Positions 3,177 to 28,362 of a stretch of DNA of 63,743 bases are shown here, piece by piece (position 1 is the first letter of the stretch; the number at the start of each line of letters is the position of its first letter). A program made the translations under genes and the position numbers. The DNA comes from Candidatus Margulisbacteria bacterium GWF2_35_9 (GTDB lineage Bacteria > Margulisbacteria > Riflemargulisbacteria > GWF2-35-9), in NCBI GenBank assembly GCA_001783275.1, contig MFRH01000001.1:1-63743 (forward strand). The letters are read 5' to 3'. The notes under the pieces were generated by a model. That model did no database searches. It was not told the origin of the DNA and saw only the letters and a list, made by a program, of their open reading frames with translations.

Positions 3177-4157
3177 ATGAAACGTTTATTAAGTGGAATA
3201 CAGTCAACCGGAAACATGCATTTGGGTAATTATTTCGGAGCTGTAAAAAACTGGGTTGATATGCAACATGATTATGAGGCTTTTTACATGGTGGCAGATC
3301 TTCATGCATTAACCACCTCCTATGAGGATGGTGTTAACATTATGAAAAATACTTACGAGGTGATTGCCGACCTGATTGCCTGTGGAATTGATCCGAATAA
3401 ATCAACTCCGTTTGTTCAATCCAGAATACCAGAGCATAGTGAGCTACACCTGATTTTTTCTATGATAACTCCCTTGCCATGGTTAGAACGAGTTCCCACC
3501 TATAAAAGTAAAATTGAAGAATTAAAAGGAAAAGACCTGAATACCTATGGTTTTCTTGGTTATCCAGTTTTGCAGGCAGCGGATATCATGTTGTATCAGG
3601 CAGACGTTGTTCCAGTAGGGAAAGACCAAGCACCCCATTTGGAGCTGACACGAGAAGTAGTCAGACGATTTAATCATTTATACAATTCAACCTTTTTTAT
3701 GGAACCGAAGGAAATATTTACAGAATTTCCAGTCATTCCTGGAACAGATGGAAATAAAATGAGTAAAAGTTATGGAAATGCCATTTATTTATCCGATGAC
3801 GCAGAAACGGTTACCCAAAAAATTATGAAAATGTTTACCGACCCTCAGCGATTACGTCGTACCGACCCAGGACGACCAGAAATATGTCCCTTGTTCGCAT
3901 TCCAGGAAATATTTAATCCAAAGGAAACTAAGACGATAGCCGCCGACTGTAAAAGTGCTAAAATCGGTTGTGTGGATTGTAAAAAAAAGTGTCTTACAAA
4001 TATGCTGGTATTTATTGAGCCGATTCGCATGAAACGAGTAGAGTTATTAAATGATAAAAAAATGCTGGATGAAATTATTGATAAAGGCACAAAACGTGCG
4101 CAGAAAGTAGCACACGAAACAGTCAATAAAGTTAAAGAAATAATAAAGATTAAGTAA
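3177..4157 (+). CDS. trpS: Tryptophanyl-tRNA synthetase
   Basis: SGIQSTGNMHLGNYFG (HIGH-type), YPVLQAADI, VPVGKDQAPHLE and KMSKS motifs. Confidence 0.97.
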   Translation: MKRLLSGIQSTGNMHLGNYFGAVKNWVDMQHDYEAFYMVADLHALTTSYEDGVNIMKNTYEVIADLIACGIDPNKSTPFVQSRIPEHSELHLIFSMITPLPWLERVPTYKSKIEELKGKDLNTYGFLGYPVLQAADIMLYQADVVPVGKDQAPHLELTREVVRRFNHLYNSTFFMEPKEIFTEFPVIPGTDGNKMSKSYGNAIYLSDDAETVTQKIMKMFTDPQRLRRTDPGRPEICPLFAFQEIFNPKETKTIAADCKSAKIGCVDCKKKCLTNMLVFIEPIRMKRVELLNDKKMLDEIIDKGTKRAQKVAHETVNKVKEIIKIK

Positions 4158-4196
4158 CTCATCCCCCGCCCCCTTCTCTTGTAAATAGAAGGGGAG
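4156..4196 (+). repeat. Palindromic repeat, left end of DUF559 cassette
   Basis: aactcatcccccgcccccttctcttgtaaatagaaggggag, with stem ccccttct/agaagggg; near-identical copy at 28323-28362. Confidence 0.85.
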
Positions 4197-4207
4197 TTAG
4201 ACTAAAA

Positions 4208-4576
4208 ATGAATAAAATATTACAAACGACTAGACATTTAAGAAAAGAACAAACAGAAAGCGAAAAAATATTTTGGGAAATCGTAAGAAATAGAAAAGTA
4301 AATGGAACAAAATTTAACAGACAATTTCCTATAAAATTTAAATTTAATAATCATAATCGTTTTTTTGTTGCCGATTTTTATTGTCATGAAAGAAAAGTTG
4401 TTGTTGAAATAGATGGAAGTATACATGAAAAACAAAAAGATTATGATAAGCTAAGGGAATATATAATAAATATTTTAGGGATTAAGGTCATTCGATTTAA
4501 AAATAATGACATTAAAAATAATATCAGTTATATAGTTGAACAATTGGAAATTATATTAAATCCCCCTCTTTTTTAA
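4208..4576 (+). CDS. DUF559 / Vsr-like endonuclease domain protein
   Basis: LRKEQTESEKIFW, KFNRQFP, FVADFYC, VVEIDGSIH and GIKVIRFKN match the DUF559 pattern. Confidence 0.92.
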   Translation: MNKILQTTRHLRKEQTESEKIFWEIVRNRKVNGTKFNRQFPIKFKFNNHNRFFVADFYCHERKVVVEIDGSIHEKQKDYDKLREYIINILGIKVIRFKNNDIKNNISYIVEQLEIILNPPLF

Positions 4577-4605
4577 GAGAGGGGTGGCCAAGGGCCGGGG
4601 TGAGT
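4561..4605 (+). repeat. Palindromic repeat, right end of DUF559 cassette
   Basis: tccccctcttttttaagagaggggtggccaagggccggggtgagt, two hairpins; related copies at 46707-46848 and 47543-47582. Confidence 0.8.
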
Positions 4606-4607
4606 AA

Positions 4608-5324
4608 ATGCAAATTAGATTACAAAAATTTTTAGCCGATTGCGGGGTTGCGTCACGAAGAAAAAGTGAAGAACTGATTGTCGCTGGTAAAATAAAAGTA
4701 AATGGAACGGTAGCAAACAATCTTGGTGTAAAAGTTGACCCCCACATGGATAAAATTCTATATAACAATAAGCCGGTGAAGATGACCGGAAAACTGTATT
4801 TACTACTCAATAAACCCAAGGATTATATTACCTCTCGAACAGATCCTAAAGAGCGAAAAACGATATATGATTTATTACCAAATGAATACAAGGATCTTCA
4901 TGCTGTTGGCAGATTGGATAGAAATACTACCGGTTTATTATTGCTGACAAATGATGGTGATCTTACTCAGTCTATTTTACATCCTAAGCATAAAATAGCA
5001 AAAAAATATAATGTCTTAATCGATAAACCACTTAGAAATGAGGATGCTCAGAGAATAGCTGAAGGATTGATGCTTGATGGGAAAAAAACATTACCTTCAA
5101 CAATCGGGTATCTGGATAATACCGGACTGCAACTGGAGCTTACCATTCAAGAAGGCCGAAACAGACAAATCCGCAAAATGTTTGCTATGCTTGGTTATAA
5201 TGTGGATCGTCTTAAGCGAGTCAGTATTGGTTTTCTTCAATTGGGGAATCTAAAACTTAGCCATTATCGATTACTGACACCTTCTGAAATTGGAAGACTA
5301 CTAAAATGGAAAATAAAAAAGTAG
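4608..5324 (+). CDS. rRNA pseudouridine synthase, RsuA/RluB family with S4 domain
   Basis: RLQKFLADCGVASRRKSEELI (S4), LNKPKDY, VGRLDRNTTGLLLLTNDG, EGRNRQIRKM. Confidence 0.95.
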   Translation: MQIRLQKFLADCGVASRRKSEELIVAGKIKVNGTVANNLGVKVDPHMDKILYNNKPVKMTGKLYLLLNKPKDYITSRTDPKERKTIYDLLPNEYKDLHAVGRLDRNTTGLLLLTNDGDLTQSILHPKHKIAKKYNVLIDKPLRNEDAQRIAEGLMLDGKKTLPSTIGYLDNTGLQLELTIQEGRNRQIRKMFAMLGYNVDRLKRVSIGFLQLGNLKLSHYRLLTPSEIGRLLKWKIKK

Positions 5325-27231: not shown

Positions 27232-28323
27232 GTGCATTTGACAGAAGATAAACAAGAAACAGGTTTTGGTATTAGCGATGACGACATCCTAACAAGATCC
27301 AGAGAAGAAACAGATATTACATTTTCAAGCGCAGTAGACGTTGTTTTATCACTCGCATGTCGAAATAAGTGCGGTTACTGCAGATTTTCTAAACGAAATC
27401 AGGATTTAACCGTTCCATATTCAACAATAAAAACATTCAAGGCAGCAAAAAAAGCAGGTGCAAGAGAGGCTCATTTGGTAGCAGGCGAAAGACCAGATAA
27501 GTTTCACGCAATTAGAGCAAAATTTGATGTCTGGGGGTTTAACAGCTACATCGAATATATATACACAATAGCGGAACTTGCCTTTTTAGAAGGATTGCTT
27601 GTTAACCTTGAAGTTGGATATTTGTCTTTAACAGAGTTGAAATATTTAAAAGAAATCATTACATCGGTAGAAATGAGTCTTGAATCTACAAATCGAGATT
27701 TTTTACAATCAGTTCATCATCAATATTCACCGAGTAAAGACCCGAACATCAGAATTAAGTTTATAGAAAATGCAGGGAAATTAAACATTCCAACCAATAC
27801 TGGTATTCTAATTGGTATTGGAGAAAGTCCAGAAGAACGAATTAGAGCCTTTGTTCGTATTAAAGACCTCCATGAAGAGTATGGGCATATACAGTCTGTG
27901 AAGATCAATACCTTCGTGCCGGAGAAAAATACGCCTATGAGCGAAGAACAACCTGTGTCAGATGAAACTCTATATGAAACCATCCGATTGGCGCGTGAGA
28001 TAATGCCAAAAGATGTTGATATTACGATTCCGGTTAATATCCATCAAGATATTATTAAATTAGTAGAGCATGGAGTAAATGATCTCGGGCAGATTCGTGT
28101 GTATGGACGAGCTTCTCTTTTCCCAAAAATGCCCTTTAAAACAATTGAAGAATATCAAGCAGAGTTAGCGCTTGGCGGATATACGCTGCATAAACAACTA
28201 CCAATTAAGAATCAATTTATTCTGGCACAGAAGTACTCAAAGAAATTAGGTCAGTTTCTAGATAAGCATCGTGCTAAACTTAAAGACAATATGCGTGAAG
28301 ACAAATTTATGCTGACGTTTTAA
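27232..28323 (+). CDS. CofG-like radical SAM protein (FO synthase subunit 1 family)
   Basis: TFS...CRNKCGYCRF, SPSKDPNIR, TGILIGIGESPEER, HEEYGHIQSV and GVNDLG parallel CofG motifs. Confidence 0.72.
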   Translation: MHLTEDKQETGFGISDDDILTRSREETDITFSSAVDVVLSLACRNKCGYCRFSKRNQDLTVPYSTIKTFKAAKKAGAREAHLVAGERPDKFHAIRAKFDVWGFNSYIEYIYTIAELAFLEGLLVNLEVGYLSLTELKYLKEIITSVEMSLESTNRDFLQSVHHQYSPSKDPNIRIKFIENAGKLNIPTNTGILIGIGESPEERIRAFVRIKDLHEEYGHIQSVKINTFVPEKNTPMSEEQPVSDETLYETIRLAREIMPKDVDITIPVNIHQDIIKLVEHGVNDLGQIRVYGRASLFPKMPFKTIEEYQAELALGGYTLHKQLPIKNQFILAQKYSKKLGQFLDKHRAKLKDNMREDKFMLTF

Positions 28324-28362
28324 ACTCATCCCCCAACCCCTTCTCTTGAAATAGAAGGGGAG
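28323..28362 (+). repeat. Solo copy of the DUF559 cassette left-end palindrome
   Basis: aactcatcccccaaccccttctcttgaaatagaaggggag, nearly identical to 4156-4196; also directly after a TAA stop. Confidence 0.85.

Follow-up and report, generated by a model that had tools for sequence, protein, structure and literature searches.

A DUF559 nuclease gene framed by mirror-repeat modules at a trpS–rluB junction, and evidence for a wide bacterial association between the two

The window analysed here, a stretch of 63,743 nucleotides from Candidatus Margulisbacteria bacterium GWF2_35_9 (source genome of 2.35 Mb in 100 contigs, 34.5% GC), carries at positions 4157-4605 a cassette of about 450 bases, in which a gene of the DUF559 family lies between two imperfect inverted repeats. 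The cassette runs from the stop codon of trpS on the left to 2 nt short of the ATG of an rluB-like gene on the right, limits that a preliminary description of the sequence had given and that both the sequence and the list of open reading frames (ORFs) confirm. Judged by their architecture, the two ends appear to be mirror-repeat ('triplex-type') modules of the BoxC/PIT/TMECO class, a point absent from that description. Across the genomes compared, the association of DUF559 genes with mirror repeats is very strong and phylogenetically wide; as far as we found it is unpublished, and the cassette offers one clean intergenic example of a widespread pairing.

The left end module (4157-4197, plus strand; folding energy -7.2 kcal/mol, z -2.7) begins with a terminus, or 'third strand', CTCATCCCCC at 4158-4167, which is followed by a 2-nt spacer and by a hairpin with arms CCCCTTCT (4170-4177) and AGAAGGGG (4187-4194); our covariance model R1 matches it at 4156-4193 (E 2.6e-8). 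The right end module (4561-4605, minus strand; -10.6 kcal/mol, z -2.5; model R1 at 4562-4606 on the minus strand, E 1.8e-5) reads on the plus strand as a hairpin (4562-4570 / 4575-4584), a mini-hairpin GGCC-AAG-GGCC (4586-4596) and a terminus GGGGTGAGT (4597-4605). On the minus strand the same elements appear as terminus ACTCACCCC (4605-4597), mini-hairpin GGCC-CTT-GGCC (4596-4586) and hairpin CCCCTCTCT / AAAGAGGGGG (4584-4562), and in this orientation ACTCACCCC-GGCCCTTGGCC-A-CCCCTCTCT... is an imperfect inverted copy of the left end. Written out, the sequence from the trpS stop to the DUF559 ATG is ACTCATCCCCC-GC-CCCCTTCTCTT-gtaaat-AGAAGGGGAG, and the plus strand after the DUF559 coding region reads CCCCCTCTT-tttt-AAGAGAGGGG-T-GGCCaagGGCC-GGGGTGAGT.

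The earlier account of the left end and the reverse-complemented right end as imperfect inverted repeats, each of them a hairpin, is borne out by the sequence and by the folds, with z values of -2.5 to -2.9 against shuffled sequences. The motif ACTCAYCCC occurs three times in the window against 0.48 expected, a count reached in none of 100 shuffles. A search of the whole window against Rfam returned no match at the gathering threshold. A reading of the ends as intrinsic (Rho-independent) terminators was rejected: neither hairpin is followed by a T-run, the left one continuing into AGTTAGAC and the right one into the mini-hairpin and the start of rluB.

Each module has three parts: an outer, C-rich terminus matching in mirror image the pyrimidine arm of the hairpin, a mini-hairpin that may be absent, and the hairpin. 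The outermost 8-10 nt of each end are the mirror image (reversed, uncomplemented) of that arm: CTCATCCCC against CCCCTTCTC at the left end, with agreement at 8 of 9 positions, and CTCACCCC against CCCCTCTC at the right end, with agreement at 7 of 8. At least seven sequence families in the genome share the mirror design, for example ACCCCTCC-(mini-hairpin)-A-CCTCCCCTT-loop-AAGGGGAGG. Over 39 modules, the terminus and arm of the same module agree on average at 6.69 of 8 positions, against 5.77 +/- 0.10 for swapped pairs (maximum 6.13 in 2000 permutations), a score that is inflated by copies within families and an agreement that still holds family by family. Because the terminus covaries with the hairpin arm as its mirror image across at least seven families, the structure of the module is judged to be under selection.

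Relatives of the window's DUF559 protein are present in 76 of the 146 genomes of its phylum (here, the GTDB phylum holding Candidatus Margulisiibacteriota and Saganbacteria), with 1 to 7 copies in each and a best identity of 57%. At the 28 phylum loci that were examined, a module lies within 150 nt of the gene in 27 and on both sides of it in 19; the order left module, ORF, right module (L-ORF-R) is found in 15 and the opposite order (R-ORF-L) in none, with orientation assigned by a 6-of-7 mirror rule whose calls are uncertain where the arms are nearly mirror-symmetric. Most module-bearing loci of the phylum share the termini (T)AACTCACCCC... and ...GGGGTGAGTT(A).

The pairing extends well beyond the phylum. 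A bacterial scan with one genome per species found relatives of 40-59% identity in Cloacimonadota, Bacteroidota, Ignavibacteriota, Patescibacteria, Chloroflexota, Omnitrophota, Proteobacteria and others, and the termini AACTCACCCC and GGGGTGAGTT are nearly identical while the proteins share only this 40-59%. At loci of other phyla, a module is found within 150 nt of DUF559 in 55 of 70, compared with 5 of 81 control windows taken 700 nt away. In a scan of all genomes, the inverted repeat flanking the gene exceeded the 95th percentile of shifted control windows at 70% of 76 loci, nearly all of them in other phyla. In Escherichia coli K-12 (L172, NC_000913.3:1351040-1351830), the stop codon of the DUF559 gene ycjD falls in the loop of a CCCTCTCCC...GAGCGAGGGGG hairpin, and a canonical BoxC/TMECO copy (CCCTCGCCCCtctgGGGAGAGGGttaGGGTGAGGG) lies about 150 nt downstream. 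The start region of ycjD comes just after a perfect hairpin of about 16 bp that contains GAGGTGA, and past its 3' end a degenerate second copy of the last ~15 codons precedes the BoxC/TMECO copy.

Gene and repeat also go together from genome to genome. The pattern CTCAYCCC-N1-30-CCCTYYY gave 1591 matches in the 146 genomes of the phylum against 178 for the reversed control. Genomes with DUF559 have a median of 10 matches (n = 76) and those without a median of 2 (n = 70; Mann-Whitney p = 5e-8), and carrying 10 or more matches is associated with DUF559 presence at an odds ratio of 7.1 (p = 6e-7); what tempers these figures is that they ignore phylogeny, that each cassette itself adds two matches, and that the genomes are metagenome-assembled (MAGs). 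The preliminary description had allowed for repeats with no genome-wide association with DUF559 genes; instead, we found an association that exceeds chance by a wide margin, in this genome as well as across genomes. As a separate observation, one genome with two DUF559 genes (G013) has eight modules on different contigs with an identical model score of 48.6 bits, which suggests a recent burst of identical copies.

The protein itself (ORF at 4208-4576, plus strand, 122 aa) has a single Pfam match, PF04480, at 101.9 bits (curated cut-off 20.6; E 2.3e-29), and its closest solved structure is PDB 3HRL (E 2e-12). By these matches it would adopt a Vsr-like PD-(D/E)xK nuclease fold, and the predicted catalytic residues D56, E67, D69 and H73 (D ... 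ExD ... H) are invariant in an alignment of 11 sequences. The ratio of nonsynonymous to synonymous substitution rates (dN/dS) of DUF559 ORFs is 0.13 and 0.40 in two syntenic pairs, and the ORFs that are syntenic within a genus or family are intact; the protein is maintained by selection. A published classification of the PD-(D/E)xK superfamily places VSR, DUF559, DUF2726, the structures 3r3p and 3hrl, and I-Bth0305I, a proven homing endonuclease, in one clade (PMC3424549).

At its locus, the cassette separates two host genes. Upstream lies trpS, coding for tryptophanyl-tRNA synthetase (3177-4157, plus strand; PF00579, E 1.9e-72), whose TAA stop at 4155-4157 abuts the left end, and downstream lies the gene for the rluB-like pseudouridine synthase (4608-5324, plus strand; PF00849, PseudoU_synth_2, and PF01479, S4 domain). 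The GC content of the DUF559 ORF is 22.8%, against 37.5% for trpS and 35.7% for rluB, and only 0.6% of equal-sized windows of the genome are as low. The order trpS–rluB is kept in 11 family- or order-level relatives, in 8 of which the two genes overlap or are separated by 11-16 nt, as in AAGATTAACTAATGAC, where the stop codon overlaps the ATG; other relatives include two with junctions of 42 and 83 nt and two with other genes in the gap. DUF559 was found at this junction in none of the 11. Because the junctions of relatives are empty or nearly so and the GC content of the ORF is deviant, we conclude that the cassette is an insertion. The comparison of relatives had been proposed in the preliminary description, with a cassette fixed at this site and no empty sites as the contrary outcome; empty and near-empty sites are what it returned.

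The nearest relative found, a metagenome contig whose TrpS is 82% identical, adds a further element to this picture. Its 54 nt between the trpS TAA and the rluB ATG align to the right end of the window's cassette, as a degenerate hairpin followed by ...GAGTGAGTT|ATG, and the junction has neither the left end nor DUF559. Either an ancestral cassette lost its left end and ORF in this lineage, or the ORF and left end joined a right-type module that was already there. The suggestion that TAA on both sides of the cassette marks a target-site duplication could not be upheld at the cassette, at other copies or in the nearest relative, which has no second TAA at the junction; it was rejected, since other copies have TAA, TAG+A, TGA or nothing at their outer end, usually the stop codon of the host gene.

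Other features of the same junction were seen along the way. In two relatives the trpS–rluB gap holds unrelated material, a reverse-strand ORF for a CheY-like receiver in a gap of 450 nt (L014, genome G004) and two small ORFs in a gap of 699 nt (L009, genome G003), and the junction seems tolerant of insertions. In two metagenome contigs from distant relatives (L179 and L180) the match to TrpS takes up 1179 nt but covers only 323 residues, which implies an insertion of about 70 codons inside trpS. In JGI contig Ga0209417_1013691 (L035/L036), which comes from a different assembly of this organism, the gene calls divide the rluB-like gene into pieces of 129 and 84 aa, probably because of a frameshift or an assembly error.

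The ends of the cassette belong to a dispersed family. Following the proposal that a covariance model of both ends be run against the genome, we made one from 25 ends and, counting full modules at E <= 2e-4, found 15 modules of what we call family 1. Apart from both ends of the window's cassette, the only member that bears a gene, they consist of three inverted pairs without an ORF (C8 1069-1200, C39 43137-43247 and C87 20474-20593, all located with the covariance model) and of solo modules. The three pairs match the end types of the cassette, with CAT / TTCTC and no mini-hairpin on the left and CAC / CTCTC with a mini-hairpin on the right. In 8 of the 15 modules the outer end lies 0-8 nt past the TAA that closes a long ORF. 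Of the four DUF559 genes in the genome, every one stands between inverted modules of a sequence variant peculiar to it, and family-1 ends occur only at the gene of the window.

Within the window, solo ends had been noted at three other places. One of these is a left-type module of the same subfamily (AACTCATCCCCCAACCCCTTCTCTtgaaATAGAAGGGGAG; 28323-28362, plus strand; model R1, E 1.4e-9; fold z -2.7). It begins 1 nt beyond the TAA that ends a 372-codon ORF, and downstream of it comes a separate terminator composed of a hairpin and a T-run. What lies elsewhere is a stack of right-type modules at 46707-46849 (plus strand), with two full modules and one partial from two sister subfamilies in a gap of 207 nt before the next gene. 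Every unit has a terminus that is the mirror of its hairpin arm: the first reads TCCTCCC..GGGGAGG-GGCACaaaGTGCC-GGAGGGG, the second CCTTCCCTT..AAGTGAAGG-(mini-hairpin)-GGAAGGG, and the partial one GGTCgaaGACC-GGGGTGAGG, which lies 6 nt upstream of the in-frame ATG at 46856 (listed ORF start 46886).

Two of the genome's other DUF559 cassettes, at C37:6020-6570 and C67:27810-28480, have the left module and its flank repeated directly after the right end, the repeat being 62 nt and exact in the former and about 150 nt, 86% identical and inclusive of a TATAAT-like promoter in the latter. Elsewhere we saw a 43-nt flank duplication (L055) and a tandem array of cassettes (L060). The layout with a second left module after the right end (L-ORF-R-L) could have arisen when a circle integrated by a single crossover, or through a duplication by which a promoter was restored.

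Beyond the source genome, the cassettes show turnover on several scales. Among 33 cassette loci only 7 of 528 pairs share flanking genes, which implies that most cassettes sit at different loci, and filled and empty cassette sites were seen between species. Contig C7 of genome G059 carries a full cassette (142-604) and, 1.3 kb away, an ORF-less pair (1922-2083) that has both ends in common with it and keeps the start codon and first ~5 codons of DUF559 together with the last ~8. Because these first and last codons are retained, the pair is a cassette after internal deletion, comparable to a miniature inverted-repeat transposable element (MITE), and not an unoccupied homing site. Solo modules of G059 begin and end at sharply defined, unvarying points (TTAGGC|CTCACCCCC ... 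hairpin), and this suggests that a module can disperse, or be lost precisely, as a unit on its own.

Filled and empty alleles can be compared most closely between two genomes of one genus, where four sites filled by a cassette in G007 have none in G008, the junctions being read by eye. Two of the ORF-less G008 alleles keep the G-rich right terminus as the putative ribosome-binding site of the next gene; here either the cassette inserted beside a pre-existing G-rich site, or a deletion spared the ribosome-binding site. At a third site (L164, G008:C2:7760-7800, against L159 in G007) the termini are abutted as GCCTCTCT-T-CGCCGAGAGGG and form a small hairpin, which is either an excision footprint or the type of palindrome into which a cassette inserts. 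In the trp operon of G007 (L160, contig C36), a genus related to that of the window, there are two DUF559 cassettes, one of them fused in frame to the C-terminus of TrpG (324 vs 193 aa). The corresponding 3' end of trpG holds only a left module and 35 nt of cassette interior in the sister genus G009 (L169, contig C3), translated as ...SPTLPLKEKGAS..., and a clean ATGA overlap of trpG and trpD in G008 (L165, contig C17).

Inverted repeats on both sides of a gene can also delimit an invertible, phase-variable segment, and in one published table of predicted inversion targets the row 'DUF559 domain-containing protein' has an odds ratio of 14.3 (PMC9881135). We regard inversion as highly improbable for this cassette. 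The repeats are short and imperfect, the ORF list of the window has no recombinase gene adjacent to them, and throughout the phylum the ORF points the same way with respect to its left and right ends; moreover, inversion would leave the solo modules, the ORF-less pairs and the empty sites unexplained.

The observed anatomy, insertion, family structure and statistical association lead us to infer that DUF559 may recognise or cut the modules and so have a role in their mobility. Specifically, we lean, tentatively and with slightly less than even confidence, towards a partnership of the kind known for repetitive extragenic palindromic (REP) sequences and their REP-associated tyrosine transposases (RAYTs), in which DUF559 would find and nick the structured repeats that belong to it and leave the copying to the host. 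Mechanistically, the DUF559 nuclease would recognise the folded or otherwise unusual DNA of its cognate modules and nick or cut there. Host repair, recombination or replication would subsequently copy or move the cassette and its ORF-less derivatives. The partnership would work like that of REP/REPIN repeats with RAYTs, with an unrelated enzyme.

The same observations can be turned around, with DUF559 as a rider and not the driver. The modules would then spread and persist by host replication or recombination at unusual DNA structures, by another enzyme or by selection for a host function, and DUF559 would be a selfish, homing-like gene that settles beside or between modules already in place, cuts ORF-less sites and is copied into them by repair, a possibility that we take seriously while judging it rather less than likely. 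Solo modules are far more numerous than cassettes and their boundaries are sharp and constant, the nearest relative has a solo right-type module at trpS–rluB without the gene, and the 'empty' sites of G008 retain the right terminus or both termini abutted, all of which would suit a gene that arrives at existing modules. The same can be said of the repeat-rich genomes and variable geometry described below, and of the membership of DUF559 in the clade of the homing endonuclease I-Bth0305I (PMC3424549). On the other hand, the ORF-less pair of G059, with its first and last codons, is a deletion derivative and not a virgin homing site. Left and right ends form two separate types, both conserved, whose orientation to the ORF does not change in the phylum (L-ORF-R at 15 of 28 loci, R-ORF-L at none), each DUF559 paralogue of the genome has its own end variant, and purifying selection on ORFs fixed at a locus is unusual for a pure homing gene.

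Several findings weigh against a nuclease that drives its own repeats. Outside the phylum, the arrangement R-ORF-L, in which the termini face the gene, is seen at 13 loci and L-ORF-R at 11, and what appears to be conserved is the adjacency of gene and module and not a single geometry with the gene inside terminal inverted repeats. In nine genomes rich in repeats, two of them 99% complete, PF04480 detects no intact DUF559 gene (one contains only short fragments); these nine carry 7-21 modules each, with top scores of 50-55 bits that equal those of genomes with DUF559 and with no sign of decay. Such genomes count against a strict dependence of the repeats on the gene, although the exceptions are weaker than they look, because MAG assembly may drop genes flanked by repeats and many DUF559 matches lie at contig ends. 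Conversely, eight genomes with two or more DUF559 genes have at most two repeats of the pattern, the ends of their genes being of other subtypes.

The history of the insertions adds to this side of the balance. No target-site duplication of fixed length was found in the flanks of the 15 modules or in the filled and empty pairs. Two other assemblies, represented by a JGI contig and a Logan contig, have the identical cassette at this very position and show no empty allele, and some cassettes are old residents that are syntenic across genera or families. We know of no strand-transfer activity for a 122-aa PD-(D/E)xK nuclease, and host functions would consequently be needed. The proposal of a REP/MITE-like system mobilised by DUF559 therefore divides: an inserted unit, MITE-like derivatives, solo ends and the association of repeat and gene all stand, while the part of mobiliser remains hypothetical and is weakened by the nine repeat-rich genomes that lack the gene, the want of a consistent target duplication, the variable geometry and the cassettes fixed across genera.

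The ends of the cassette also carry translation signals. A Shine-Dalgarno (SD)-like GGGGAG at 4191-4196 (plus strand), within the 3' arm of the left hairpin and 11 nt before the ATG, would act as the ribosome-binding site of the DUF559 ORF, and its position in the arm implies that formation of the hairpin would mask it. The ORF ends with a TAA stop (4574-4576) in the loop of the right hairpin. Both the ggggag and the stop codon had been attributed to the ends beforehand, and both are there in the sequence, the SD role being putative. The right terminus (GGGGTGAG / GGGGGTGAGTT; GGGGGTGA) is similar to the SD consensus GGAGGTGA; in the window it sits, as GGGGTGAGT, 2 nt before the rluB ATG, and at 17 of 61 related loci a long ORF starts 0-15 nt after it, as in ...GAGTTATG. 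The left terminus often begins at the TAA stop of the host gene or just after it. Taken together, the ends seem built to replace the translation signals that they disrupt. The repeat ends are also often translated as spurious peptide tails, such as ...NPPLF here and PLSFRRGAGGEV before trpD in a relative.

Under the proposed partnership of nuclease and repeat, these positions would limit the harm done to the host. The left end lies directly after the trpS stop, its hairpin carries and would sequester the putative ribosome-binding site of DUF559, the right loop holds the DUF559 stop, and the right terminus GGGGTGAG would replace the ribosome-binding site of rluB.

A different reading is that the modules are useful to the host at gene boundaries, be it at mRNA 3' ends, in translation initiation or in replication and recombination, that DUF559 is a domesticated maintenance nuclease, and that the cassette is now immobile. 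The 8 of 15 modules that lie 0-8 nt after the TAA of a long ORF are in line with it, as is the SD-like right terminus with its 17 of 61 long-ORF starts. Syntenic cassettes are kept across genera under purifying selection, the structure of the modules is conserved across phyla, and RAYTs offer a domesticated precedent (10.1101/119735; PMC3116915). We nevertheless consider it unlikely, given that DUF559 is patchy (76 of 146 genomes, with copy numbers from 1 to 7), that its presence varies within a genus and that the GC content of the ORF is strongly deviant. PIT/TMECO motifs showed neither promoter nor terminator activity in published tests (PMC4666352). The modules here are also without T-runs, and at 28.3 kb a terminator is needed in addition to the solo copy.

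Repeats of the BoxC/PIT/TMECO type have been known for decades, and DUF559 is to our knowledge a very large protein family to which no role has been assigned. More broadly, DUF559 proteins may be the missing protein partners of BoxC/PIT/TMECO-class repeats across bacteria and form a second, independent symbiosis of nuclease and repeat, in which nicking of three-stranded or hairpin ends would drive copying, movement and turnover, and the ends would have evolved as sources of stop codons and ribosome-binding sites, which would make insertion at gene junctions nearly harmless; we advance this wider claim as a speculative one and think it doubtful as a whole. If true, one answer would explain both the orphan repeats and the very large orphan family, bacteria would have a second class of enzyme-plus-repeat system with a chemistry unlike that of RAYTs, and small selfish cassettes would persist at operon junctions or in gene fusions because they carry a stop codon and a ribosome-binding site of their own. 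A protein of 122 aa and oligonucleotides of 40 nt would suffice for a direct test of the link. It also bears on annotation, since the ends give spurious peptide tails and can break MAG assemblies.

In the library searched we came upon no publication linking DUF559 to mirror repeats, with DUF559 in no title or abstract, and no paper combining the terms Vsr-like, inverted repeats and mobile; judged by titles or abstracts, none of its papers that mention ycjD concerns repeats. The closest published relatives of the modules are the BoxC/PIT/TMECO 'intrastrand triplex' repeats, which Holder et al. (2015) described in E. coli and more than 260 other genomes (PMC4666352), citing earlier work on BoxC and PIT and linking the repeats to genome instability. 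In both systems a pyrimidine-rich terminus (purine-rich on the other strand) mirrors the adjacent hairpin arm across a short spacer, and both are G/C-rich in an AT-rich context, intergenic, present in multiple copies and variable in their loci between close relatives. The consensus differs, with CTCAYCCCC / CCCCT(T)CTCT here and CCCTCNCCC-N3-6-GGGNGAGGG-N3-GGGNGAGGG in TMECO, and, unlike in TMECO, the spacer of many of our modules contains a mini-hairpin as well. Strict TMECO membership was rejected, since the 2.35-Mb genome has no strict and no relaxed match to the TMECO consensus. The resemblance would accordingly be one of architecture and not of sequence family, with a potential for three-stranded folding. 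A further difference is that the repeats here frame a nuclease gene, whereas the TMECO survey 'never found ... transposases or integrases' near the repeats, reports no mobility genes nearby and leaves DUF559, ycjD and endonucleases unmentioned (PMC4666352).

With MITEs the cassettes share terminal inverted repeats and internally deleted, ORF-less copies that keep both ends (in G059, and at C8, C39 and C87), and differ from them in having no recognised transposase family, no consistent target-site duplication, and single ends that are dispersed alone. With I-Bth0305I ('EDxHD') the DUF559 gene shares its PD-(D/E)xK clade and the character of a small, selfish-looking nuclease gene with presence/absence polymorphism. 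As for differences from I-Bth0305I and homing genes, DUF559 does not lie in an intron or intein, is framed by structured repeats that are also found alone, and is under purifying selection at fixed loci.

The likeness to REP/REPIN–RAYT systems covers more features. In both, a single gene for an enzyme lies between inverted copies of the short structured repeat that belongs to it (PMC3116915, PMC3337134), and the same repeat is dispersed outside genes as singlets and inverted doublets, here as 15 modules with 3 doublets. Each repeat family has one gene, and paralogues in one genome have different cognate repeats. The differences lie in the enzyme, which is here PD-(D/E)xK (Vsr-like) and not an HUH/Y1 (IS200/IS605-like) transposase, and in the repeats, which are mirror-repeat-plus-hairpin modules where those of RAYTs are simple palindromes, the activity of DUF559 on its repeats being a proposal. 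Unlike REP/RAYT, the DUF559 unit is also small (450 bp) and fits into operon junctions and, in other genomes, inside ORFs. RAYTs are described as single-copy, vertically inherited, 'domesticated' enzymes of repeats (10.1101/119735; PMC3116915), and DUF559 resembles them in its vertical persistence under purifying selection.

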